A DNA stretch of 64,000 bases from Candidatus Harrisonbacteria bacterium. Its GTDB lineage: Bacteria; Patescibacteriota; Minisyncoccia; UBA6257; 02-FULL-45-10c. A program made the translations under genes and the position numbers. The notes under the pieces are model-generated. The model searched no databases. It had not been told where the DNA came from and worked only from the letters and a program-made list of their open reading frames with translations. The stretch lies in NCBI GenBank assembly GCA_016214655.1, contig JACROC010000002.1:67801-131800 (forward strand). Reading direction: 5' to 3'. Below are positions 5,164 through 16,821 of the stretch, one piece after another; within the stretch, counting starts at the first letter, position 1, and every line of letters begins with the position of its first letter.

Positions 5164-5775
5164 TTATACAACCTTATATAAGTTATTTTCTTTTATATAT
5201 TCAGAAACGCCCTTAGATAAATATTGACTAACCGGCTTGCCGCTGGCTATCAATGAACGTACATCGGTACTGGAAAAATTTGACGGGTCTAAATTTCTTT
5301 CCAACACCATAACATTTTTAGGCAAATTTTCCGGCAAAGAGATTCCTGGCCGGACAAGCACTATAAAATTAGCTTCTTTATATAATTTTTCGCCATTCAC
5401 CCATTTGGTTTTTATATCATTAAAACTGTCAGAACCAACTACAAAATAAAATTCAAAATCCGGATACTGATTTTCCAATTCTGTTTTAGTTTCATAAGTA
5501 GTGGTCAGCTTCGGACGATCCAATTCTAAAGTGGGTATTTTTATCGGCACCTTGGCATCCTGAAATAATTCCTTGATTAAAATTTCTACCATTTTAAACC
5601 GATGCTGTCCGCTGACACTCATAGCCTTATCGTGCCGGTCGGCAGATGGCATCACCCAGATCTCATCGCAAGGAAATTTTTTAAGGACAGAACGGATAAC
5701 CGAAACATGGCCTAAATGAGGCGGATTAAACGCCCCTCCAAAAATAACTATTCTTTTACCACTATTCTTTGTCAT
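5164..5775 (-). CDS. nadD: Nicotinate-nucleotide adenylyltransferase
   Basis: 'IVIFGGAFNPPHLGH' is the (H/T)xGH nucleotidyltransferase motif of NadD. The internal ATG (MTKNSGKR...) was preferred over the longer ORF extending to 5847. Confidence 0.85.
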   Translation of the reverse strand: MTKNSGKRIVIFGGAFNPPHLGHVSVIRSVLKKFPCDEIWVMPSADRHDKAMSVSGQHRFKMVEILIKELFQDAKVPIKIPTLELDRPKLTTTYETKTELENQYPDFEFYFVVGSDSFNDIKTKWVNGEKLYKEANFIVLVRPGISLPENLPKNVMVLERNLDPSNFSSTDVRSLIASGKPVSQYLSKGVSEYIKENNLYKVV

Positions 5776-5826
5776 TTTATGATTATCAAGCCAAAAATTT
5801 ATTTCGGCAATCTCCGCCGTCCTTTT

Positions 5827-5957
5827 CCTACCGACACCGGCGTTCATCGACTCTTGCGGTCAGCGCCGCCTACGCTTCACCGCGATTTTTCGCTTCGCGA
5901 AACCCAGTAAATCGCAATTCCGTAATTGCCGCACGAAGAATAGTTTCGGATATTTAC
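5827..5957 (+). ncRNA. Candidate structured cis-regulatory RNA, copy B, in the 5' leader of the histidine-phosphatase gene
   Basis: Homologous to copy A. It has hairpins gcgattt..aaatcgc and ttcgc..gcgaa at the positions of copy A's hairpins. It shares the conserved strings cgccgcctacgc, acccag and ttgccgcacg. Confidence 0.55.
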
Positions 5958-6036
5958 ATAAAAAAATGATTGCTTTCCATCGAAATTTCTTTTAAAATAT
6001 AGACGGAACTTAGTTAATTCAATAGGGAAAGCAAAG

Positions 6037-6819
6037 ATGAAATGGCCGCGGAAGCTGATCCTTATCCGGCACGGCGAATCTGCTTATAATCTTATGAAAA
6101 AACAGAAGGAGTCAGACCCGGACTATAAAGAATTCAGGAAGGCATATGAGGAATTTGAAAGAGACGGCTTTCGCAATGAGCTCGCCCGCCAACTGGCGGA
6201 AAAACTGAAAGAAAAATGCGATGTCGGAGTAAGCGATCCGGAAACTCCCCTTTCTCCCGAAGGGCATCGCCAAGCTTTAGAAACTGGAAAAGGCCTGTCT
6301 GTTCATTCCCGGCTTCCTGATGTCATTTTCGTTTCTCCATATGTCCGAACTCAGCAAACGCTCGCTGGATTAGTAAAAGGCTGGCCAAAACTGGGAACGG
6401 TCAAAATTATCCTAGATGAACGCATCCGGGAGCGGAATATCGGCTTATTGGAGATATTCAACGACTGGCGAATATTAAATGTGCTTTATCCGGAGCAAGC
6501 CAGACTGCACGCACGGCAAGGAAAATTTTATTACCGCTATCCGCAAGGAGAAAGCATTGTGGATGTGCAATCGCGAAACCGGCAATGGTTCCAAACCCTT
6601 ACCAGAGATTGGGCCGGCAAACGAGTACTAGTGGTATCCCATCACCTGACTATCCTTAGCATCCGAAGCCTACTGGAACGCTGGACTCCAGAACAATTCA
6701 TTGATGTGGATGAAAATCACTCTCCGAAAAATTGTTCATTAACTGTTTATCGCGGAGATCCGAAACAAGGCACCGACGGCAAACTTTGCCTCGAAACCTA
6801 TAATCAAGTTTTCTATTAA
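6037..6819 (+). CDS. Histidine phosphatase family protein (phosphoglycerate-mutase-like)
   Basis: The 'LIRHGES' RHG catalytic motif sits at the N-terminus. Confidence 0.75.
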   Translation: MKWPRKLILIRHGESAYNLMKKQKESDPDYKEFRKAYEEFERDGFRNELARQLAEKLKEKCDVGVSDPETPLSPEGHRQALETGKGLSVHSRLPDVIFVSPYVRTQQTLAGLVKGWPKLGTVKIILDERIRERNIGLLEIFNDWRILNVLYPEQARLHARQGKFYYRYPQGESIVDVQSRNRQWFQTLTRDWAGKRVLVVSHHLTILSIRSLLERWTPEQFIDVDENHSPKNCSLTVYRGDPKQGTDGKLCLETYNQVFY

Positions 6820-6846
6820 AAAATAAAGGCGCATTTCTGCGCCTTT

Positions 6847-8064
6847 TTAATATTTGCATTCCTCTGATTCGTTTCTTGTATATCCGAAAATCTTCTTAAA
6901 TCTTTCAATATCATTCGAATCTCCCATCGCCTTTGCCAGATTATCACTCAACTTCACCGTGCCGTGGCCGTTAGCTTCAGTAACCTTAACCACCAATGAT
7001 AACGCTTTAAATCCTAAGTCGTTGGTAAGGTTTGTCCCCCATCCGAATACAACATTAGTTCTTCCGCTAAATCGCTCATGGAGTTTAACGATCATATCCA
7101 CATCCAGCCCATCACTGAAAACAATAGTCTTTGTTTTAGGATCAATACCATATTTCTGATAAAACGCAATCGCTTTTTCACCGAACTCAAATGGATCTCC
7201 CGAATCCTGCCGAAAACCTCGCCACTTTCTCACCTGCTCTAAAGTTAAATCCTTAAAAAAGAAATCAGTTCCATAAGTGTCAGTAAGCGCAATTGATAGC
7301 GGCTCGCCATACTCCTTCCACCAAAGCTGTAACACCTTATTATGAGAGTACCGGATAGAATCATCACTGCCATGATAAACTCCAGATAACACCATATCCA
7401 TTTCGTGCGCAAAAGTGCCGATCGGACGGATTCCAAATCGTTTTGCAAAAGCAACATTTGAAGTTCCCAGAAGCTGATCCGGAACCGATCGCACTAAGCG
7501 GCCGATAACGTTATCCTGCCAGTAACGGCTGAATCGTCGGCGCGTGCCAAAATCTGAAAACTTTATTCCGGGATACAGGTTCAAAATCTCGATCTTTCGA
7601 GATAAACGGCTCTGTCCTTCACTCCAAACTCCAACTTCCGACCGCCCTTCCTTTCTAAGTAAAGAACGGTAATAAAGTTCGTTCACTACGGATAAAATCA
7701 GAGTTTCCCACCAAATCGCTTCCGGCCAAAGTCCAAAAACCTCAATCTTGTAAGTAGCGCCGTCTCTAGCCACAACAACTTCCGGAAGCTTCAAATTTTT
7801 TAAGAATCCTAAAAAGTCTTCGGAAAAAATCTTGAGTCCGCGCAGATATGCAATTTCCTCATCGGTAAACCGCAGGCTCCTAACATGATCCAATTCCATT
7901 CTCAAGTCTTCTTCATTGATATATTCAGCCAGCAGAACATTTTTTGTCCGATTTTTAAAACTGTACCTTACGGGTACAGTTTGATAATGCTTCCAGGCAA
8001 CCTGTGCCATCGTAAGCTTATAATAATCAAGATCTAACAGAGATCGGATGATTGGAGTATTCAT
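6847..8064 (-). CDS. pncB: Nicotinate phosphoribosyltransferase
   Basis: 'FSDFGTRRRFS', 'AHEM', 'FRQDSGDPFEFGEKAIAFYQKYGIDPKTKTIVFSDGLD' and 'VKLSDN' match NAPRTase. The start was set at MNTPIIRSLLDLDYYKLTM. Confidence 0.85.
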   Translation of the reverse strand: MNTPIIRSLLDLDYYKLTMAQVAWKHYQTVPVRYSFKNRTKNVLLAEYINEEDLRMELDHVRSLRFTDEEIAYLRGLKIFSEDFLGFLKNLKLPEVVVARDGATYKIEVFGLWPEAIWWETLILSVVNELYYRSLLRKEGRSEVGVWSEGQSRLSRKIEILNLYPGIKFSDFGTRRRFSRYWQDNVIGRLVRSVPDQLLGTSNVAFAKRFGIRPIGTFAHEMDMVLSGVYHGSDDSIRYSHNKVLQLWWKEYGEPLSIALTDTYGTDFFFKDLTLEQVRKWRGFRQDSGDPFEFGEKAIAFYQKYGIDPKTKTIVFSDGLDVDMIVKLHERFSGRTNVVFGWGTNLTNDLGFKALSLVVKVTEANGHGTVKLSDNLAKAMGDSNDIERFKKIFGYTRNESEECKY

Positions 8065-8065
8065 A

Positions 8066-8665
8066 TTAACCGCGGTCTCTAAAGAGAAGGAAGGTTTCGA
8101 TTGAAAGAGAAATAACGCCACTGCGCACCATTTCCTCTACCGCCCTATCTCCGTCGCCTGGATTGATATTTACTGCCCTAGAACCGTCAGAGAGAAAATA
8201 AGTCTTGAAACCCGCTCGTACAGCGCTTAGCGCCGTAGCTTTCACGCAATAATCAGTAGCCAAACCGCCGACATAAACCTCTTCCACACCCGCCACCCGT
8301 AAAACCCTTAACAAATTCATGCCAATATCAGTCACCCCATCAAAGGCAGAATATCCGCCATCATCATTAAGATCCATGCCCTTAGAAACGACGATCGCCT
8401 GTTCTACCTTAAGATCTTTATGAAATTTCGCGCCTTCAGTATTCTGTACACAATGCGGAGGCCACAAACCACCGCCAGTGTTAAAGTGCCTTGTTTCTGC
8501 CGGATGCCAATCACGAGAAGCGATAATTATCCAACCCTTTCGCAAGGCAAAATCTGCCATCCGATTAAGCGGTTCAACCACTTTATCGCCGTCTTTCACG
8601 GCCAATGCTCCGCCCGGACAAAAATCATTCTGTACATCCACCAAAATCAGCACTGCCCTTGCCAT
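8066..8665 (-). CDS. pncA: Nicotinamidase / pyrazinamidase (isochorismatase family)
   Basis: 'LILVDVQNDFCPGGAL' is the PncA motif. The start is at MARAV, preceded by aaggaggcaaagATG. Confidence 0.85.
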   Translation of the reverse strand: MARAVLILVDVQNDFCPGGALAVKDGDKVVEPLNRMADFALRKGWIIIASRDWHPAETRHFNTGGGLWPPHCVQNTEGAKFHKDLKVEQAIVVSKGMDLNDDGGYSAFDGVTDIGMNLLRVLRVAGVEEVYVGGLATDYCVKATALSAVRAGFKTYFLSDGSRAVNINPGDGDRAVEEMVRSGVISLSIETFLLFRDRG

Positions 8666-8793
8666 CTTTGCCTCCTTTTTTCCTTTTTCGAGGAACGTTG
8701 TCATATTACCTATGGGCCACGCCCCTCGTCAATCCTGTTAGAGGCCGCGAGAGCTCACAGCGAGCTTCTGCCTCTAACGGGATCAACCTTACT

Positions 8794-8816
8794 AATAGTG
8801 TATCATGGACACTAAC
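8794..8816. promoter_or_regulatory. Candidate NrtR operator 1 (AATAGTGT-N7-ACACTAAC) upstream of pncA-pncB
   Basis: A palindrome TAGTGT-N7-ACACTA that also occurs at 11052..11074 and 15943..15965. All three are in promoter regions of NAD/ADP-ribose genes. Confidence 0.5.
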
Positions 8817-8902
8817 AAATAGTCAATACAAAAAGCCTTTGCTAAATTAGTGGCGCTTTAACGCGTTAAAGCGCCGAACAAGTAAAACTAAAATTAAAAT
8901 TG

Positions 8903-8925
8903 AAAAAACCCGCGGTCAGCGGGTC
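8903..8925 (-). terminator. Terminator after the ADP-ribosylglycohydrolase gene
   Basis: Hairpin acccgc-ggtca-gcgggt, followed on the minus strand by TTTTTT. Confidence 0.55.
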
Positions 8926-8932
8926 TATCAAC

Positions 8933-9862
8933 CTATTCCAGTTTCTTTTCTAATTTCTCTCCTAGCTGAATCAAGTAATCTCTGCCACATGGTCCGTTCT
9001 CCAGATCTCTTAGTAGAAATTCCGGAAACGAATCAAGTCCGCACTGGATTGCTTTTAAGCCAGTCGCAAGTGCGGCAACGCTATCTGTATCCCCGCCGAG
9101 CAAAACTGATTCTTTAAGCACGCTTACGGTGTCAGGATATTTTGTAACCAGATACAACACCGCTCCCGCAGTCCGCATACCATCGCAAGGAACGCCGTAA
9201 TCTTTATCTGCTTCTCCAAAAAGTAAGACTGGATCAAATTCTTTCATATCCCCGATTGCCGTCCAATACTCGGTAGATTCCGGATCAATAGCCAAACTTA
9301 GTTCCAAACAATAATTAAACAATTTATCAATCGGTCCGACATCGTGCAAAAAATAATGCGATGCAAGCGCCATGCAAACCGAAGACGCTTTTCCTTTAAG
9401 CGTATCGTGCGTAACTGAGGCATTTGTCATTGCGGCTTCAATCACTAATCTTGCATTCTTCAGAAGGCCTAATGGCGTTGCGCGCATTGCCGCGCCATTC
9501 CGGATAGAATTAGTCTTAAGCTTCGCAATCAATCCTTTCCCATCCGACACCTCCGGCAGCGTAATTCGCAATCCCTTGCCATAACCATTCCGTTCATCGC
9601 GCTTATAAGTTTTTACAAAATAATCAGCGAAGTTTTCTTTGGTCAACAGCTTTCCGGACAAAAGCAATTCCGCAATCGCAATGGACATCTGCGTATCATC
9701 AGTATATTCTCCGGCTCCGTTTCCCCATTCTTCTTTCGGATTCCTCTGATATTTAGTAAAATCAAAAACCCTAGGAATTTCATATCTGGTCATAGTCTCA
9801 TAGCGGATCCCGAATGCATCGCCCACCGCAAGTCCCAATAAAAGATTTTGTATCTTATTCAT
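8933..9862 (-). CDS. ADP-ribosylglycohydrolase family protein
   Basis: The N-terminal 'LLGLAVGDAFG' motif is characteristic of the DraG/ARH family. Confidence 0.75.
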   Translation of the reverse strand: MNKIQNLLLGLAVGDAFGIRYETMTRYEIPRVFDFTKYQRNPKEEWGNGAGEYTDDTQMSIAIAELLLSGKLLTKENFADYFVKTYKRDERNGYGKGLRITLPEVSDGKGLIAKLKTNSIRNGAAMRATPLGLLKNARLVIEAAMTNASVTHDTLKGKASSVCMALASHYFLHDVGPIDKLFNYCLELSLAIDPESTEYWTAIGDMKEFDPVLLFGEADKDYGVPCDGMRTAGAVLYLVTKYPDTVSVLKESVLLGGDTDSVAALATGLKAIQCGLDSFPEFLLRDLENGPCGRDYLIQLGEKLEKKLE

Positions 9863-11033
9863 CGCCTTTCTCTGTTAAAACCGAAAGAATCTTGCCAATA
9901 TTACTCCAATCAAGGAGTCTCTCCGACAAAATTTCCTTCACGGTTTTTACTTCAATATAAGTACGTTCGCCAGTGGGATTATCTAAATCCGCCCCATGCA
10001 CAACGCCCCTTTGACTGATAAACCATTGCATTTCCTTTTCGGTAAGCTCTACGGAAAAAAGATGCGCCTTATGCGCGGTAAAAGTTCCGGCTAACTGACG
10101 CGCGCCATGAGCTTGAAAACGCTTCGGCTCACATTTGAAGCCAGTTTCTTCATAAACCTCTTCCGCAGCAACCGAATACGGGTCGCTGTTGGGCTTAGCC
10201 GGAGATCCGCCCGGCAACTCCCAAATATAGCAGTCCGGAGTGGAGGCGGGCGTCCTAAATTCCCTAACCAATATTACTCGAGACTGTAAAATATCCAACG
10301 CTCGCGTATAAAGAATTACCGTGGCAATATCTGGCCGAGAAATCAAAATCTCGTTGGTTTTATTTCTGTTTTCACTGGCAATATGGATATTCAGGTGCAT
10401 GGCAAAGCTAAAAATGTGTTCCCGGTTTTTCCCAACTCGATGAATCCATTTCAAAACCGCGCCATCAATTCGATTCCCGACTCTCTTCTGCGCTCTATAC
10501 CACAATTGAAAAGTTCCAGTCCGCCAAATCCGAAGCGGCACGTCCCGTTCCCCGCCAACTCGCATCGCTCCTGGATTAAGCAGGTCTAAACACTTTTCAA
10601 TCGTTTCCTGCAGAGTATGTAAAATCGGAATATCATTTTTCTCGGCAACCAGATCAAGATATTTAATCTTTTCCGCTTCCGGCGGATATCCTAAAACCGA
10701 TTTGCCCAAATGAACATAAAGCCCGAATTCCACATTCGTCGTAAAGCCTGGCAGCATTTCCAAGTTGCGCGGCACCCAGAAAAGAATGCAATCGGCGGCA
10801 TTCAGTGCCTTATGTTCCCATTCAACTTGCTCCCGATAATTAAAATTCTCATAAATTCCGCCGCCACGATCTTCCGGCACAAATACCACCCCGTCATAGC
10901 CGAAGGTTTTTAAGATGCGCAACGCCTCAGAGCGCCAAGATTTAACTTCCGCTTTCTGCGGAGTCGGCCCGGCAAGGAAAATAGATTTCTTCCAAGCCAG
11001 CGGAAACGTTTCACGGCTATAGACCACTTCCAT
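9855..11033 (-). CDS. Fusion protein: nucleoside 2-deoxyribosyltransferase-like N-domain plus NUDIX hydrolase C-domain
   Basis: N-terminal 'SIFLAGPT...W...VVFVPE' resembles the NDT-like fold. The C-terminal 'ELPGGSPAKPNSDPYSVAAEEVYEETGF' is a Nudix-box-like motif. It overlaps the downstream gene by 8 nt, so the two form an operon. Confidence 0.6.
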   Translation of the reverse strand: MEVVYSRETFPLAWKKSIFLAGPTPQKAEVKSWRSEALRILKTFGYDGVVFVPEDRGGGIYENFNYREQVEWEHKALNAADCILFWVPRNLEMLPGFTTNVEFGLYVHLGKSVLGYPPEAEKIKYLDLVAEKNDIPILHTLQETIEKCLDLLNPGAMRVGGERDVPLRIWRTGTFQLWYRAQKRVGNRIDGAVLKWIHRVGKNREHIFSFAMHLNIHIASENRNKTNEILISRPDIATVILYTRALDILQSRVILVREFRTPASTPDCYIWELPGGSPAKPNSDPYSVAAEEVYEETGFKCEPKRFQAHGARQLAGTFTAHKAHLFSVELTEKEMQWFISQRGVVHGADLDNPTGERTYIEVKTVKEILSERLLDWSNIGKILSVLTEKGDE

Positions 11034-11051
11034 ATTTTCACCTATTAAATG

Positions 11052-11074
11052 TTAGTGTACTAATTACACTTTAT
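11052..11074. promoter_or_regulatory. Candidate NrtR operator 2 (TTAGTGT-N7-ACACTTT) in the divergent region between the Nudix-fusion gene and a methyltransferase
   Basis: Same TAGTGT-N7-ACACT architecture as sites 1 and 3. Confidence 0.45.
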
Positions 11075-11117
11075 TTTGATATTAGAATTCTGTCAATAAC
11101 ATTGATAGACTGACTGT

Positions 11118-12068
11118 ATGGAAAAAGAATTAGCCCGCGGCAGAAAATTCCGCATTTATAGCTCTTTAATGGATGCGGCAATTGAGCAAAAAATAAAAGA
11201 TGTTATACCATGGGTCAAACCAGGAATAATCGTGGATGCCGGCTTTGGAACCGGCCTGCTCCTTTTCCGATTATGGGAAAGATTCAGGGATTCTAAGCTT
11301 ATCGGCATCGATCTCTCTTCGCATTTTTTTGAAAAATCCCAAAGGCAATTCCATAACATCCCCAATGTTACGCTGCTCAAGAAAAACATCATTCAGCAGA
11401 ATCTTCCAAATAATTCAGTGGATACTAAAATCTTTTCCACTATTCTCCATGAGGTATATTCTTACAATGGCTGTAATTTAAAATTTGTAAAGACTGCGCT
11501 CAAGAATTCCCTAAAAGAATTAAAACCAAGCGGCCGCATTATCATCCGCGATGGCGTAAAACCAGAATCAGAAACTATCTGCCTATCATTTAAAAATGGT
11601 GATGACACAGAAACAATGTTTCTGCGCTTTGCCAAAGAATATAAACATAATAAAGGAATAAAATATAAAGTTCTAATAGACAAGTGGCTAGGCAAATTAT
11701 ATTGTACCGACTCTTCTTCGGCTTACGAGTTTCTTTCTAAAAAAGACTACCGCGATAACTGGCATATTGAAGTAAACGAGCAATTTGGATATTTAACTCT
11801 TAAAAAATATATGAAACTACTGCAAAAACTTGGCTTCAAAATAATTTATACAAAGGCTTATCTAAATCCCTGGATCCTAAAGAACCGCTGGCTTGGTAAA
11901 GTAAAACTTTATCGAAGGACAAGGCACGAATTAAAAACCATTCCTTATCCAAATACAAATTTAGTAATTATTGCGGAAAAACAAAAACCCCCGAAGGGGT
12001 TTAATTGGCAAAACATTGCCGGGCATCCTGATTCAAAAATTTCCATAATCGGCGGCAGAATTCTCTGA
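11118..12068 (+). CDS. Class I SAM-dependent methyltransferase
   Basis: 'IVDAGFGTGLLL' glycine-rich SAM-binding motif. Confidence 0.65.
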   Translation: MEKELARGRKFRIYSSLMDAAIEQKIKDVIPWVKPGIIVDAGFGTGLLLFRLWERFRDSKLIGIDLSSHFFEKSQRQFHNIPNVTLLKKNIIQQNLPNNSVDTKIFSTILHEVYSYNGCNLKFVKTALKNSLKELKPSGRIIIRDGVKPESETICLSFKNGDDTETMFLRFAKEYKHNKGIKYKVLIDKWLGKLYCTDSSSAYEFLSKKDYRDNWHIEVNEQFGYLTLKKYMKLLQKLGFKIIYTKAYLNPWILKNRWLGKVKLYRRTRHELKTIPYPNTNLVIIAEKQKPPKGFNWQNIAGHPDSKISIIGGRIL

Positions 12069-13248
12069 AGCGTTCCCAATGGGAAGGCCTGTATCCTTTT
12101 TCCGTATAATAATATCTTCCTCCTAAAACGGCTTTACCGGAAGCAGAGTCCAGGCAAGTATCATTAGAGTAAATATGAGTTTCCATAGAAGTATCAACTG
12201 CAATATGGGCTTGTTTTAAAATCTGGCGGATCGCCTTTTGCATCAAAATCCGATAACGCTGGTTACCATAAAGTTTTTCAATAGCAGCTGCCGGCTTCTT
12301 CCGCCTTAACGTAAGACCTGCCCGGATAATCATCCTGGAGACAAATTTATCGCCCTGCATCACATAAGCAATCACTGCGGAATTGGCAATATCTTCATAA
12401 AGCCCCTTACGATAATCGCCACCCTCCAAATTCACACAGCTATCCCAAGGTTTTTCGGTTGAGGCCTGCAGAATATCCAGCGACTCATTAGAAATTACTA
12501 AATCTATCACATGCTCTTCGGAACGGCCGAAAAAAGAAAGGATCGGATTCCGCGGATGCACCCCTAACCGCATCAAAACTTTAGTAATCTTCCTTGAATC
12601 AGCAATGATCTCATCCGGCGAAATTGGTGAGTTGAACATCTCTAATAATAAACCGATCTTTTCTTTCAAAGCTGCTGAATCGGTGGTCGCATTGACAACA
12701 TACCTGCCAGCCACTTTATCAAGAAAATTATTCCTTACGGATCTTTTTTCTAACGCATCCGCCAAAAGCTGTTCGTCCACCAAACGCCGCAATGCTTCTG
12801 GTTCCGGCAAGTCAGTCTTATGGCTTGCTTTTGCTAAATCGGAAAAACCGAATTCAAAAATATCCGGAGCATTCCAGGTATTTAAAAACTTTTTCTGCCG
12901 CTCCTCCTTAGCGCCAGACCGCGAAAGATTTAAGTCAAATAGCTGGGCATGGCCTCGCCATAAATAAACCTCTCCGAAATTTCTTTTAAGATATTCTTCA
13001 ATACTTCCGCTCTTGGCAATCTCTTCTAACACCTGGCCAAGCCTCGGAAAGTAGCGCAATAATAATTTCCGTAATTTTTGCCCTTGATAGATTTGCAGCG
13101 AATATTTATCTAAAGATTCTCCGAAAGAAACTAATTCTGAAAGAGAAGAATCCTCGCGACAAGTCGCATGAATTTTAACTGATAACGACCCGTTTCTGGC
13201 AGCCTTTTCCGCACTATGCAAGGATTCTGGAAATTGCCGGTCTCCCAC
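12001..13248 (-). CDS. Hypothetical protein (415 aa), co-directional with nadE and nrtR
   Basis: Long ORF with no recognisable motifs. It is probably the last gene of the nadE-nrtR operon. Confidence 0.5.
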   Translation of the reverse strand: MGDRQFPESLHSAEKAARNGSLSVKIHATCREDSSLSELVSFGESLDKYSLQIYQGQKLRKLLLRYFPRLGQVLEEIAKSGSIEEYLKRNFGEVYLWRGHAQLFDLNLSRSGAKEERQKKFLNTWNAPDIFEFGFSDLAKASHKTDLPEPEALRRLVDEQLLADALEKRSVRNNFLDKVAGRYVVNATTDSAALKEKIGLLLEMFNSPISPDEIIADSRKITKVLMRLGVHPRNPILSFFGRSEEHVIDLVISNESLDILQASTEKPWDSCVNLEGGDYRKGLYEDIANSAVIAYVMQGDKFVSRMIIRAGLTLRRKKPAAAIEKLYGNQRYRILMQKAIRQILKQAHIAVDTSMETHIYSNDTCLDSASGKAVLGGRYYYTEKGYRPSHWERFREFCRRLWKFLNQDARQCFAN

Positions 13249-13331
13249 TTGATCCTCCGTTTACTCATATTTAGTTTTGAGTGACTGATGATATTTTAAC
13301 AGAAAAATAATAAAAAGTCAAAGAGCTATTA

Positions 13332-14012
13332 TTAAAAGAATTTCTTCAATTCTGTCGGCTTGGTAGTAATGAACTGATAAAGCTTCGCTGGGCGCTGAGG
13401 CGTGCCGGAAAGCATTTTACGGGTAGATCGCATTAATCCAAGAGATAAAAATTTCTTACGGAAATTCCGCTTATCCAATTTTTTATCCAAAATTATCTCA
13501 TAAGCGCTCTGAAGCTGATTGAGGGTAAAATATTTCGGCAATAAAGAAAATACCACATTAGTATATCCCAGCTTCGCCTGCAGCCGCTTGACGGCATAGC
13601 TGATTATATTTTTATGATCAAAAGCAACCGCCGGAAGCTTCTTTACCGGATGAAACGCCGGGGTTTGCAAATCGCCGCTTCCTTCAAACCCGATTTTATC
13701 CCGCGGCACAAGCGCAAAATAAGCAACAGTCAGCACGTGGCCGCGCGGATCGCGTCCCAAACTGTCAAAAGTATAAAGCTGTTCCGCATAAACATTTCTA
13801 ACTCCGGCTTTTTCCTTTAAAATCCTGAGCGCGCCTTGCTCTGAAGTTTCATTCCTTAAAAGAAAACCTCCTGGCAAGGCCCAGGATCCTTTGAATGGCT
13901 GGTCAGCTCTTTTAATTAATAAAACCTTTAATTGGCCGTCTTCTATAGTAAAAATGACGGTATCTACGGTAACTGCTGGCGGTGTGTATAATTTCATAAT
14001 TCTTTTAGCCAA
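13332..14012 (-). CDS. nrtR: NrtR-family transcriptional regulator (Nudix-like domain plus C-terminal winged helix)
   Basis: Nudix-like 'LPGGFLLRNETSEQGALRILKEKAG' with the C-terminal 'FTLNQLQSAYEIILDKKLDKRNFRKKFLSLGL' signature of NrtR regulators. Confidence 0.75.
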   Translation of the reverse strand: MAKRIMKLYTPPAVTVDTVIFTIEDGQLKVLLIKRADQPFKGSWALPGGFLLRNETSEQGALRILKEKAGVRNVYAEQLYTFDSLGRDPRGHVLTVAYFALVPRDKIGFEGSGDLQTPAFHPVKKLPAVAFDHKNIISYAVKRLQAKLGYTNVVFSLLPKYFTLNQLQSAYEIILDKKLDKRNFRKKFLSLGLMRSTRKMLSGTPQRPAKLYQFITTKPTELKKFF

Positions 14013-15934
14013 AGATTTACTTCTGCGTCAGATGGCATGCGCCAATCACCGCGAGGTGATAATGCGACCGATCCGACTTTCGGCCCATCCGGCATAACCG
14101 ACCGCTTCCACTGATTGCGGAAGAACCGGGTCACAAAAACCTTCAGCCATTTATGGATCGTCTCCGGCTTGTATTTCTTATCAAAAGCGTTTTCCGCCAA
14201 AAAAAGGATCTTTCTAGGACTGCTTCCCCACCGCAAAAAATGATACAAGAAGAAATCATGAAGTTCGTAGGGACCAACCAAATCCTCAGTTTTTTGCGTA
14301 ATGCCCTTTTTACCGCTACGCACCAACTCCGGAGAAATCGGCGTCGCTAAAATATCTCTTAATACTTTCTTCGCTTTTACAAAATCTCCCTGCTCACTTA
14401 CCCATTCCACCAGATATTTAACTAATAATTTGGGGATACTCGCATTAACGTTATAATGGGAAATCTGATCGCCGGTAAATGTATTCCAGCCAAGCGCAAT
14501 CTCCGAAAGATCGCCCGTACCCACCACGATCCCGCCAAGTTGATTGGCTTTATCCATCAGCGTCAACGTCCGATAACGCGCCTGCACGTTCTCAAAAGTA
14601 AGGTCCTGAGTTTTAGTATCGTGGCTGATGTCTTTTAATTGCTGCAGCGCGCCTTTAGTAATATCAATTGTTTCAATACTCACTCCAAGCGCTTCTGCTA
14701 ATTTCAGCGCATTGGATTTTGTCCTTTTAGTTGTCGCGAATCCCGGAAGCGTATATGTATGAATATTTTTTAGCGGCAATCCTAAAAGGCCGGCGGTTTT
14801 TACCGCGACCAAAAGAGCCAGAGTTGAATCCAGGCCGCCAGAAACACCGATCACCAGATTCTTTATCCCCGCCTGCTCCAAACGCTTCACCAGCCCCGCA
14901 GATTGGATCGCAAATATTTCTTCCGCCCGCTTGCTGCGCTCAGCCGGATCCTGCGGCACAAAAGACCACGGATTCACGTGCCTATCAAACGTACGCACAG
15001 CCAAAATTGGAAGCGGCACATCTGCAAAACGGAAATTTTTTCTGGCAGATTCATGAATTGATTCTCCGAAACTCGTCTGGCGTTCGCGATCCAATGAAAG
15101 ATGCTCCAGATCTATATCGGAAAAAATAAGATCACTAGTCCGGGAAAACCGCTGGTTTTCAGAAAGTATATTGCCATTTTCCGCAATCAGCGCATGCCCG
15201 CCAAACACCACATCAGTCGTGGATTCATGAACGCCGCATGAAGAATAAATATAACCGCACACCCCGCGCGCAGATTGCTGGGCAATAAGGTTCTTGCGGT
15301 AATCTGCCTTCCCCACTAAATCATTAGAGGCGGAAAGGTTGGCAATAATCGTCGCGCCAGCCACTACCTGAAACGAACTCGGCGGAATCGGCACCCAGAG
15401 ATCTTCGCAAATCTCTAAGCCCAGAACCGCTTCCGGCATATTCTTAAATCGGAAAAGAAGGTCTGTCCCGACAGGAACGCTTTTACCGTCAATCAGCGTT
15501 TCTTTCGCAATTAAATCGCGAGCGGACGCAAACCACCGCTCCTCATAAAATTCTTTGTATCCTGGAATATATGTCTTCGGAACCAGCCCTAAAATTTCGC
15601 CGCGACTCACCACTGCGCCAATATTAAAAATTTTTCCGTCCAAACTAAATGGCAATCCGGCAACTAAAACGGCATTTAAATTCCTAGAAGCCTTTTTAAT
15701 GGCAATCAAGGCCTCTTTAGCTTTTTTTAATAAATTCCGCTGATGGAATAGATCGGCGCAGGTATAACCGGTTAGACCAAGTTCCGGGAAAACTGCAACC
15801 GAAGCGCCGAGTTTTGCGGCTTTTTCCGCCAAAGTTAAGGTCTGCTTAAGATTATAATCAACGTCTCCCACTTTAAGGGTTGGTACGGCTGCCGCTACTT
15901 TTATAAAGCCAAATTGATTTAATTTACCGGCCAT
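13994..15934 (-). CDS. nadE: Glutamine-dependent NAD+ synthetase (nitrilase domain plus NAD synthetase domain)
   Basis: The N-terminal C-N hydrolase domain has 'FPELGLTGY'. The C-terminal PP-loop has 'VIGVSGGLDSTLALLVA'. Confidence 0.85.
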   Translation of the reverse strand: MAGKLNQFGFIKVAAAVPTLKVGDVDYNLKQTLTLAEKAAKLGASVAVFPELGLTGYTCADLFHQRNLLKKAKEALIAIKKASRNLNAVLVAGLPFSLDGKIFNIGAVVSRGEILGLVPKTYIPGYKEFYEERWFASARDLIAKETLIDGKSVPVGTDLLFRFKNMPEAVLGLEICEDLWVPIPPSSFQVVAGATIIANLSASNDLVGKADYRKNLIAQQSARGVCGYIYSSCGVHESTTDVVFGGHALIAENGNILSENQRFSRTSDLIFSDIDLEHLSLDRERQTSFGESIHESARKNFRFADVPLPILAVRTFDRHVNPWSFVPQDPAERSKRAEEIFAIQSAGLVKRLEQAGIKNLVIGVSGGLDSTLALLVAVKTAGLLGLPLKNIHTYTLPGFATTKRTKSNALKLAEALGVSIETIDITKGALQQLKDISHDTKTQDLTFENVQARYRTLTLMDKANQLGGIVVGTGDLSEIALGWNTFTGDQISHYNVNASIPKLLVKYLVEWVSEQGDFVKAKKVLRDILATPISPELVRSGKKGITQKTEDLVGPYELHDFFLYHFLRWGSSPRKILFLAENAFDKKYKPETIHKWLKVFVTRFFRNQWKRSVMPDGPKVGSVALSPRGDWRMPSDAEVNLWLKEL

Positions 15935-15942
15935 GATAATAT

Positions 15943-15965
15943 AATAGTGTCACTTTTACACTATT
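15943..15965. promoter_or_regulatory. Candidate NrtR operator 3 (AATAGTGT-N7-ACACTATT) in the 41-bp nadE/nadK divergent intergenic region
   Basis: The most symmetric copy of the TAGTGT-N7-ACACTA palindrome. Confidence 0.5.
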
Positions 15966-15975
15966 CTAACCTAAT

Positions 15976-16821
15976 ATGATTAACCCGTCAATAAAGTCGG
16001 TTGGTTTCTTTTATCGGCCGGGTAATCCAAAGATAGCGGCCTGGGAAAAGAAAATCTGTGCCTGGCTTAAACAAAAATATCCGCAAGTTAAACTAACCGA
16101 GAAAAAGCCGCAGGCTCTGATTGTGCTTGGCGGCGATGGAACTATCTTGGAAGCCGCCCGGCGATATCTTTCACAAAATCCGCTGGTGGTAGGATTAAAT
16201 TTAGGCCACATCGGTTTTTTGGCATCAGTCCGCAAGCCGAAGGATTTCCTATCCGGACTAAATTTATTAATAAAAGGAAAATACCGCATTACCGAAAGAA
16301 TGATGCTGGCTGCCGAAGTTAAAAGAAAAAATAAAATAATCTTAAAAACCTATTCCTTAAACGATATTGCAGTGCAAAGTCTGCTGGGGGTAGCGGAGAT
16401 GGAAGTCGGCATTGACCATCAGCCGGTCCAATACATCCGCGGCACGGGCGTTCTAGTGGCCACCGCTACCGGCTCAACCGCCTATAATCTTTCGGCACAC
16501 GGACCGATTGTAATGCCAGACATCAAATGCTTTATTGTAACTGAACTAATGGATCATAACGTACCCACCCCAAGCATCGTGGTAAAAAGAAACCGGGAGA
16601 TTTATATAAAAATTTCCGACTTCCGGGAACGCGGCGTTCTTTCGATTACCAAAACCGGAGAAAAAGTTGATGTCATCCTTTCTTCCGACTGTGAGAGTGC
16701 TTTTCCGATAAAAATCGGTGATGAAATCACTATCCGCCGCTCCCCCCGCCTGGTCCGCTTTGCCGAATTCGAACCGCATTATTTCTTCAGAAGCCTGCAG
16801 GAAAAATTCGCTTTTCGATAA
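15976..16821 (+). CDS. nadK: NAD kinase
   Basis: 'LIVLGGDGTILEAAR' is the GGDG motif of NAD kinases. Confidence 0.8.
   Translation: MINPSIKSVGFFYRPGNPKIAAWEKKICAWLKQKYPQVKLTEKKPQALIVLGGDGTILEAARRYLSQNPLVVGLNLGHIGFLASVRKPKDFLSGLNLLIKGKYRITERMMLAAEVKRKNKIILKTYSLNDIAVQSLLGVAEMEVGIDHQPVQYIRGTGVLVATATGSTAYNLSAHGPIVMPDIKCFIVTELMDHNVPTPSIVVKRNREIYIKISDFRERGVLSITKTGEKVDVILSSDCESAFPIKIGDEITIRRSPRLVRFAEFEPHYFFRSLQEKFAFR

Follow-up and report, generated by a model that had tools for sequence, protein, structure and literature searches.

An NDT-like/Nudix fusion gene and its ADP-ribosylglycohydrolase partner in a predicted NrtR-controlled NAD cluster of Candidatus Harrisonbacteria

Patescibacteria rely on salvage, their genomes being minimal, and how they maintain their pool of nicotinamide adenine dinucleotide (NAD) is a fundamental question of their physiology still to be answered. 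We have analysed a pair of genes in a 64,000-nt stretch of DNA from Candidatus Harrisonbacteria (hereafter the window, to which all coordinates refer unless a related locus is named). The first gene encodes a protein of 392 amino acids (aa), called the fusion protein below, in which a domain resembling nucleoside 2-deoxyribosyltransferases (NDTs) is followed by a Nudix-like half; the second encodes an ADP-ribosylglycohydrolase (ARH) of 309 aa. The fusion protein is identical (100%) to a deposited 'NUDIX hydrolase' of Candidatus Harrisonbacteria (P0001). An earlier note on this DNA had described the pair as an ADP-ribose processing operon under a candidate operator of the regulator NrtR. The locus places an uncharacterised and very widespread two-domain enzyme inside the predicted NrtR/NAD regulon.

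Organization and predicted control of the gene pair

The pair is part of an NAD(P) gene cluster of 11.7 kb (5164-16821) that comprises nadD, a histidine-phosphatase gene, pncB, pncA, the ARH gene, the fusion gene, a methyltransferase gene, an open reading frame (ORF) of unknown function, nrtR, nadE and nadK (Table 1). The fusion gene and the ARH gene overlap by 8 nt, as the earlier note had seen, and a purine-rich AGAAAGG stands just 5' of the ARH initiation codon ATG. The overlap ATGAATAA is predicted to couple the translation of the two genes. It is found in identical form in the relatives L081 (4915-4922) and L082-L084 (L numbers denote related loci), and relatives at 76-78% identity retain the gene order nadE-nrtR-(methyltransferase)-fusion-ARH-pncA-pncB. 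The two genes are predicted to form an independent transcription unit, which the terminator-like hairpin after the ARH gene would separate from pncA-pncB.

Table 1 Features of the gene pair and of the surrounding NAD(P) genes in the window
Feature	Positions	Strand	Basis
Fusion gene, coding sequence (NDT-like N-glycosidase domain plus ADP-ribose-pyrophosphatase-type Nudix, predicted), 392 aa	9855..11033	-	ORF
NDT-superfamily domain, aa 1-158 (PF15891)	10560..11033	-	Pfam, model, fold search
Glu102 codon (TTNVEFG motif), predicted catalytic nucleophile of the N-glycosidase domain	10728..10730	-	conservation
ADP-ribose/NDP-sugar pyrophosphatase-like half (N-terminal beta domain plus Nudix fold), aa 160-392	9855..10556	-	Foldseek
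Nudix box, aa 276-299 (GSPAKPNSDPYSVAAEEVYEETGF)	10137..10208	-	alignment of homologues
ADP-ribosylglycohydrolase, coding sequence (ARH/DraG superfamily), 309 aa	8933..9862	-	ORF, PF03747 149 bits
Overlap of fusion-gene stop and glycohydrolase start, 8 nt	9855..9862	-	ORF list
Sigma-70-like promoter (TTGACA, 17 nt, TAAAGT) for the two-gene unit	11068..11096	-	consensus match alone, 10/12
Candidate NrtR operator upstream of the fusion gene (TAGTGTACTAATTACACTT)	11053..11071	.	palindrome
Intrinsic-terminator-like hairpin and T-run directly after the glycohydrolase stop	8906..8926	-	8-bp stem, 5 GC pairs, then TTTCAATTTT
Second operator copy, pncA-pncB promoter	8797..8813	.	one mismatch to palindrome
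Third operator copy, between divergent nadE-nrtR and nadK	15946..15962	.	one mismatch to AGTGTA-N5-TACACT
pncA (nicotinamidase), next transcription unit downstream of the pair	8066..8704	-	PF00857 96.8 bits
pncB (nicotinate phosphoribosyltransferase)	6847..8121	-	PF04095 187 bits, PF17767 95.8 bits
nadD (nicotinate-mononucleotide adenylyltransferase)	5164..5847	-	GGAFNPPHLGH motif; PF01467 69.4 bits
nrtR (Nudix-like effector domain plus winged helix)	13332..14012	-	PF21906 NrtR_WHD 82.9 bits, NUDIX 55.6 bits
nadE (glutamine-dependent NAD synthetase)	13994..15934	-	L081 homologue with CN_hydrolase and NAD_synthase
nadK (NAD kinase), divergent from nadE	15976..16821	+	PF01513, PF20143

The -10 hexamer of the fusion-gene promoter is overlapped by a perfect AGTGTA-N5-TACACT palindrome (11054-11070). 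Of the two imperfect copies, the one upstream of pncA-pncB overlaps a promoter-like -10 that ends at 8797, and the one between nadE-nrtR and nadK extends to a longer palindrome, AATAGTGT-N7-ACACTATT (8-7-8). Each of the three copies falls within an NAD-gene promoter. By chance 0.56 sites would be expected per window, and three sites were reached in 3 of 100 shuffles. A search of 84 related loci (1.33 Mb) with the query TAGTGT-N7-ACACTA gave 75 sites with at most two mismatches, 36 of them perfect, and a composition-based estimate puts the number of perfect sites expected by chance at about 0.1. Sites of this type stand upstream of operons that hold the fusion gene: 36-43 nt before the orthologue in L031, L039 and L081-L084, in two copies in L008, upstream of ARH-fusion in L006 and L028, upstream of pnuC-nadR-ARH-fusion-pncA-pncB in L005, and in L019 upstream of a radical SAM (S-adenosylmethionine) gene followed by the fusion gene and pncA.

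Known NrtR sites are 21-bp palindromes with a GT-N7-AC core, and ADP-ribose is the anti-repressor of NrtR (PMC2330246). The palindrome in the window fits this core and is predicted to be an NrtR-type operator, in line with the suggestion of the earlier note, and the product of the nrtR gene matches the NCBIfam family TransRepNtr (E 8e-49). By motif and linkage the two-gene unit is thus predicted to belong to the NrtR regulon. The best operator copy (15946-15962) is shared by nadK and nadE-nrtR, which suggests that NrtR controls NADP synthesis as well in this organism. Another strong inverted repeat, GGCGCTTTAACGCGTTAAAGCGCC, at 8850-8880, separates the terminator of the ARH gene from the operator of pncA; it might terminate transcription in both directions or bind a further protein.

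Domains of the fusion protein and of the glycohydrolase

The N-terminal domain, which the earlier note had called NDT-like from the motif 'SIFLAGPT' (aa 17-24), was recognized by Pfam as PF15891 (Nuc_deoxyri_tr2) at aa 15-118, with 48.5 bits against a cut-off of 30, and profile and fold searches both point to the NDT superfamily. The Pfam family of nucleoside 2-deoxyribosyltransferases proper (PF05014, EC 2.4.2.6) reached 19.3 bits, under its cut-off of 28.8, and the protein is therefore predicted not to be a true NDT. A separate model of aa 1-160 (pLDDT 92.8) was used for the fold search. Its best match was the structural-genomics protein 4mcj (TM 0.75, 20% identity), followed by the CMP N-glycosidase MilB (E 3e-4, TM 0.61), bacterial TIR domains, Rcl/DNPH1 and NDTs. 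Among characterised enzymes the nucleoside monophosphate (NMP) N-glycosidases MilB and Rcl are nearest, ahead of the nucleoside transferases, with the true NDTs below MilB; the TIR domains occupy ranks 13-15 (TM about 0.47), and retron NADase effectors were not among the top 50 matches. A family profile run against structures gave a sequence-level match solely to 4mcj (E 2.4e-6), with which the fusion family has the motifs FLAG, QVxWE and TxxExG in common.

Residue conservation was counted across 120 homologues. The invariant positions of the N-terminal domain are F19, L20, G22, P23, W33, R34, W72, E73, D81, P88, T98, N100, E102 and G104. Glu102, present like T98, N100 and G104 in 120/120 sequences, pairs in the alignment with the 'TLLEMG' Glu of 4mcj, and its position in the motif makes it the probable equivalent of the catalytic Glu of NDT (Glu98), Rcl and MilB. 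Together with Glu102, the residues E73, R34, R89 and R158 are invariant or almost so and R26 is found in 117/120 homologues, a conserved Glu/Arg set that would fit a phosphorylated substrate.

An AlphaFold2 model of the whole fusion protein, built on 120 homologues, has a pLDDT of 93.5 and a pTM of 0.88, the latter value implying a fixed arrangement of the two domains. When the C-terminal half was compared with the Protein Data Bank (PDB) by Foldseek, it matched the ADP-ribose diphosphatase NudF of Klebsiella and Escherichia coli, human NUDT5, NudK/YffH and the ADP-ribose pyrophosphatase of Bacillus methanolicus (E 1.5e-11 to 1e-10, TMt 0.6-0.76), and a sequence match to Bacillus ADP-ribose pyrophosphatase was also obtained (E 3e-3). 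The alignments, of about 205-230 columns, span the whole NudF, NUDT5 and NudK chains. Since they cover the N-terminal beta domain as well as the Nudix fold, the modelled half appears to be of the two-part 'ADP-sugar pyrophosphatase' Nudix type and not a minimal MutT.

The earlier note had also read the Nudix box as degenerate, with Glu in place of the usual Arg in 'AAEEVYEETGF' (aa 289-299), and so it is. The catalytic glutamates of the RE-U-x-EE core, part of the Nudix consensus GX5EX7REUXEEXGU, are nevertheless kept across the homologues, E292 and E296 in 120/120 and E295 in 118/120; within the box G276 and S277 are invariant and G298 is conserved, and the loop has one extra residue relative to Bacillus NudF. 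Elsewhere in this half E258 and R260 are invariant, and R312, Q313, T317 and H321 are conserved downstream of the box. The box thus looks non-canonical as a family trait, with the putative metal-ligand glutamates intact.

The second protein of the pair is, as had been proposed from its sequence, of the DraG/ARH type: it matches PF03747 (ADP_ribosyl_GH), and its di-metal site motifs YTDDT and GGDTDS are intact in the alignment with ARH3. Its sequence matches in PDB are ARH3 (6g1p, E 1.7e-15), MJ1187 (1t5j, 1.6e-13) and DraG (2.6e-10). Among the NCBIfam equivalogs, DraG was matched with 53.6 bits against a cut-off of 337 and Tri1 with 48.3 bits against a cut-off of 490; being so far under both cut-offs, the protein is predicted to be an equivalog of neither.

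Distribution and gene neighbourhood of the fusion family

Homologues of the fusion protein form 1,667 clusters at 90% identity (E<=1e-3) and 1,686 representatives at 50% identity, 474 of the latter at E<=1e-30; the best 150 members are nearly all 380-400 aa long and contain both domains. A genome scan found the family in at least 554 genomes, and its members occur in Patescibacteria, Myxococcota (Enhygromyxa), Actinomycetes (Glycomyces, Actinomadura, Dactylosporangium), Bacillota, Shimazuella and Planctomycetota. The combination of domains, which the earlier note had held to be unusual, therefore appears to define a large, conserved, multi-phylum family and not a rare one. A search for variants with extra domains returned just two, which are not decisive: P0208 has an additional N-terminal domain of the RapZ C-terminal type (PF22740), and in P0215 the Nudix domain is followed by another NDT-like domain. 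In the viral structure database BFVD the N-domain model matched a 412-aa 'Nudix hydrolase' of Klosneuvirus KNV1 (A0A1V0SJZ7, TMq 0.75) and several further viral proteins; because of the Klosneuvirus match the two-domain architecture is probably present in giant viruses.

The neighbours of the fusion gene were counted in the best 80 loci of the family. The commonest are pncB (21 loci), pncA (19), nadE (16, by tblastn) and nrtR (15), followed by an uncharacterised radical SAM gene (10), ARH genes (7), nadA and prs (5 each), a histidine-phosphatase gene (3) and pnuC/nadR (2). At least one of pncA, pncB, nrtR and nadE is carried by 29 of the 80 loci; pncA lies directly downstream of the fusion gene and co-directional with it in nine, and pncB is adjacent in four. 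The ARH genes, which belong to different subfamilies, abut the fusion gene in all seven of their loci. In four of these the ARH gene is directly upstream, with the one in the window downstream, and the upstream ARHs have just 23-26% identity to the window ARH, which indicates non-orthologous genes recruited independently. The firm association of the family thus appears to be with the NrtR/PncA-PncB salvage route and not with the glycohydrolase: conservation of the pair itself, which the earlier note had proposed to survey across Patescibacteria, holds among the relatives at 76-78% identity and does not extend to the family as a whole, in which pncA and pncB are the usual partners. A draG-like gene beside nrtR is known in Streptomyces (PMC2330246). 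No shared neighbours were found by tblastx in 24 high-GC or non-CPR (candidate phyla radiation) loci, nor on inspection of the ORFs of L080, and the apparent tblastx matches in high-GC loci proved to be compositional noise.

The radical SAM gene, which is absent from the window, stands by the fusion gene in L019 (1282-2157), L013 (9048-9920), L047 (8949-9878) and L012 (12135-13097), and often heads an operon whose start is marked by an NrtR-type site. Its product matches PF04055, with weak MoaA- and viperin-like NCBIfam matches, and may be a further component of an NAD-related module.

Three other genes accompany the NAD genes of the window. The histidine-phosphatase gene (PF00300; 6037-6819, + strand) lies between nadD and pncB, and homologues of it adjoin the fusion gene in L031 (68% identity), L012 and L015; a nucleotide or ribose-phosphate phosphatase is among the possibilities for its product. 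A class I SAM-dependent methyltransferase gene (11118-12068, + strand) is divergent from the fusion gene, so that the intergenic region with the operator is common to both, and this arrangement is kept in L081-L084. The methyltransferase has a weak PADLOC match to 'mad2' (E 1.9e-9) and a PRK06922-like NCBIfam match of 105 bits, under the cut-off. An ORF of 415 aa (12001-13248, - strand), for which no match was found in Pfam, NCBIfam or PADLOC, overlaps the 3' end of the methyltransferase gene by 68 nt; it is absent from the otherwise syntenic L081-L084, which marks it as an insertion, specific to this lineage, that separates the methyltransferase gene from nrtR. Substitution of the fusion protein for a missing nicotinate mononucleotide (NaMN) adenylyltransferase was ruled out, as the window has a normal nadD gene and NadD-like genes are also present in related loci.

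Predicted role in NAD recycling and relation to known systems

On these sequence-based grounds we propose that the pair is an NrtR-repressed two-gene unit that recycles the by-products of NAD-consuming reactions, a proposal for which we see the chances as evenly balanced. The ARH enzyme would free ADP-ribose from ADP-ribosylated proteins or from O-acetyl-ADP-ribose. The Nudix domain, with Mg2+ bound by E292, E295 and E296, would convert ADP-ribose to AMP and ribose-5-phosphate and might also split NAD(H) into nicotinamide mononucleotide (NMN(H)) and AMP. The earlier note had assigned to the pair the release of ADP-ribose and its hydrolysis; the modelled fold of the C-terminal half fits the hydrolytic step, and what that proposal leaves unaccounted for is the role of the N-terminal domain. 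In the scheme preferred here the NDT-like domain would hydrolyse a nucleoside 5'-monophosphate at its N-glycosidic bond by means of Glu102. The likeliest substrate is NMN, which would yield nicotinamide and ribose-5-phosphate. NMN could come from the NAD-dependent DNA ligase or from Nudix cleavage of NAD(H); nicotinamide would pass to PncA, PncB, NadD and NadE, and ribose-5-phosphate would return by way of phosphoribosyl pyrophosphate (PRPP). With ADP-ribose as the anti-repressor of NrtR the unit would be induced when NAD is consumed, and removal of this inducer by the Nudix activity would provide negative feedback.

We know of no gene assigned to an NMN nucleosidase activity of the EC 3.2.2.14 type. 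That the NDT-like domain is this missing bacterial pyridine-nucleotide N-glycosidase, fused to an ADP-ribose/NAD pyrophosphatase, is offered as a tentative assignment, held well short of even confidence. NMN is favoured because PncA, the product of the commonest immediate downstream neighbour, consumes nicotinamide, and because the nearest characterised folds are NMP N-glycosidases and not nucleoside transferases or NADases. It is favoured also because the fold superfamily handles such substrates: CD38 and BST1 act on NAD, NMN and nicotinamide riboside, and another member, the Retron-Eco1 effector, acts on NAD(P)+. By analogy with CD38 and BST1 the NDT-like domain might also carry out base exchange, in which NMN and nicotinate give NaMN and nicotinamide.

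Several observations weigh against the proposed recycling role. About half of the loci, among them nearly all of those outside Patescibacteria, have no NAD context, so the core function need not be tied to PncA, and the genomes of L005 and L036 encode NadR or PnuC and have no obvious need of an NMN nucleosidase. The N-terminal domain may recognise nicotinamide, adenine or another base, and at position 26, Arg in 117/120 homologues, the window protein has Gln. Codon 26 (10956-10958), in the GPTP-R loop, is CAG in the window, one transition away from the Arg codon CGG, and a 78%-identical relative carries Arg; Gln26 may reflect a genuine change of function, or else a mistake in sequencing or assembly. 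In the Nudix half the NUDIX match of Pfam (aa 250-308) scores 19.6 bits, just under the cut-off of 21.1; the call, which agrees with the Nudix-like domain of the earlier note, is rescued by the match of the model to ADP-ribose pyrophosphatases at E about 1e-11, and the homologues P0134, P0215 and P0172 score 25-29 bits, above the cut-off. The Arg position of the box (291), Glu in the window protein, is variously E, D, A, H, K or N across the family, and the G-x5-E segment has no conserved Glu. Dunn et al. in 1999 reportedly described a proline some 15-16 residues downstream of the Nudix box as a marker of ADP-ribose pyrophosphatases; the fusion protein lacks it and has LAG at positions 314-316. 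A literature search on PF15891, NMN nucleosidase genes, NDT-Nudix fusions and NrtR in CPR bacteria found no characterisation of the family.

The fold evidence could also serve the disposal of ADP-ribose alone, which we regard as unlikely. The Nudix half would then yield AMP and ribose-5-phosphate and the NDT-like domain, as an AMP (purine nucleotide) N-glycosidase, adenine and a second ribose-5-phosphate, both riboses going to PRPP for PncB and nicotinamide being no product. Two consecutive steps would suit a fusion protein, and the ADP-ribose-pyrophosphatase-type fold of one half, the closeness of the other to NMP N-glycosidases and the adjacent ARH genes all agree with this account, as does the presence of prs, the gene for PRPP synthetase, in five loci and in NrtR regulons elsewhere (PMC2330246), PncB needing PRPP. 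It leaves unexplained, however, why pncA is the commonest immediate downstream gene, and no residue-level sign of adenine recognition was obtained.

A gene for nicotinamide use downstream is expected if the NDT-like domain, in the manner of TIR domains, CD38 and the Retron-Eco1 effector, instead hydrolyses NAD+ to nicotinamide and ADP-ribose and the Nudix half at once destroys the latter, with the controlled turnover feeding PncA. The product of the first domain would be the substrate of the second, NDT-fold and TIR enzymes are known to hydrolyse NAD(P)+ (PMC9503650), and TIR domains are among the fold matches of the N-terminal domain. We nevertheless judge this improbable: the TIR matches are weak and the retron NADase effectors fall outside the top 50, no PADLOC defence family was matched, and a constitutive NADase in an ADP-ribose-induced NAD-biosynthesis regulon would create positive feedback on NAD loss.

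In Myxococcota, Actinomycetes and Shimazuella the family has members that lack NAD neighbours, and these raise the question of a house-cleaning or salvage function unrelated to NAD, in which the enzyme would, for example, make (d)NMP from (d)NDP or NDP-sugar and split it into base and (deoxy)ribose-5-phosphate, as with Rcl/DNPH1, and the place of the gene in the NAD cluster of compact Patescibacteria genomes would be a coincidence. Rcl and MilB are the nearest characterised folds of the N-terminal domain, and NudK/YffH, which acts on GDP-mannose, matches the C-terminal half as well as NudF does. Such a coincidence seems highly improbable in view of the NrtR-type operator at the gene's own promoter in the window, L008, L031, L039 and L081-L084, which is kept in L039 though no NAD gene is nearby, and of the near-contiguous, co-directional pncA, pncB, nrtR or nadE that recurs in many independent arrangements. 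To the degradation of NAD-derived immune or signalling nucleotides (such as cyclic ADP-ribose isomers), or to an anti-phage or anti-defence role, we give scarcely any credence: conflict systems centred on NAD commonly contain Nudix, ARH and NDT/TIR-class domains (PMC9503650) and viral proteins share the N-domain fold, the 412-aa Klosneuvirus protein among them, but the surroundings of the pair are those of housekeeping NAD biosynthesis with NrtR as its regulator, genes for sensors, effectors or mobile elements are not adjacent, and the lack of any PADLOC match for the fusion protein or the glycohydrolase rules against a defence system.

If the NMN nucleosidase assignment is right, one NrtR-controlled protein turns NMN, ADP-ribose and perhaps NAD(H) into nicotinamide, AMP and ribose-5-phosphate, which feed the PncA-PncB route. 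A gene would then be assigned to nicotinamide release from NMN coupled to ADP-ribose clearance, a previously unassigned NAD-recycling step in Patescibacteria and several other phyla that is blank in current pathway maps for organisms lacking PncC or NMNAT. The fusion enzyme is a reasonable candidate for this step. Should NMN prove not to be the substrate, the family would still be a conserved NDT-fold enzyme with a nucleotide substrate to be found.

Each part of the proposed module resembles a known enzyme and departs from it. The window ARH shares PF03747 and the di-metal site motifs with ARH3, DraG and MJ1187, and differs from DraG, as from Tri1, in its scores far under the equivalog cut-offs; it may act on protein-Arg, protein-Ser, O-acetyl-ADP-ribose or another substrate. 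The closest structure to the N-terminal domain, 4mcj (BDI_0649 of Parabacteroides distasonis), is an uncharacterised stand-alone PF15891 protein of 154 aa without a Nudix domain. With MilB, a CMP/hydroxymethyl-CMP N-glycosidase, and Rcl/DNPH1, a deoxynucleoside monophosphate (dNMP) N-glycosidase, the domain has in common the T-x-x-E-x-G motif and a loop rich in glycine that follows strand 1; there is no sequence-level match to them, and the context is NAD salvage and not antibiotic biosynthesis or dNMP catabolism. The C-terminal approximately 210 residues are like NudF, NUDT5 and NudK/YffH in fold, including the N-terminal beta domain, and in the three box glutamates. They differ in that identity is 12-17%, that Glu/Asp replaces the box Arg, that the loop has its extra residue and the marker proline is missing, and that the Nudix domain is joined to another catalytic domain.

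The closest functional analogue would be NadM-Nudix, as in slr0787 of Synechocystis and NadM of Francisella and Acinetobacter, likewise a two-domain NAD-salvage enzyme with a C-terminal Nudix domain of the ADP-ribose pyrophosphatase type. NadM-Nudix is also found in NrtR regulons (PMC2330246), and the logic common to both is an NAD-salvage activity fused to the removal of ADP-ribose. In contrast to NadM-Nudix, the N-terminal domain of the fusion protein belongs to PF15891 and gave no match to the nucleotidyltransferase family PF01467 in Pfam, and its predicted chemistry is therefore hydrolytic or base-releasing instead of adenylyl transfer. The fusion protein is accordingly best described as a predicted bifunctional NAD-salvage Nudix fusion with a new partner domain, and if the NMN assignment is right it extends the logic of NadM-Nudix to a new catalytic partner.

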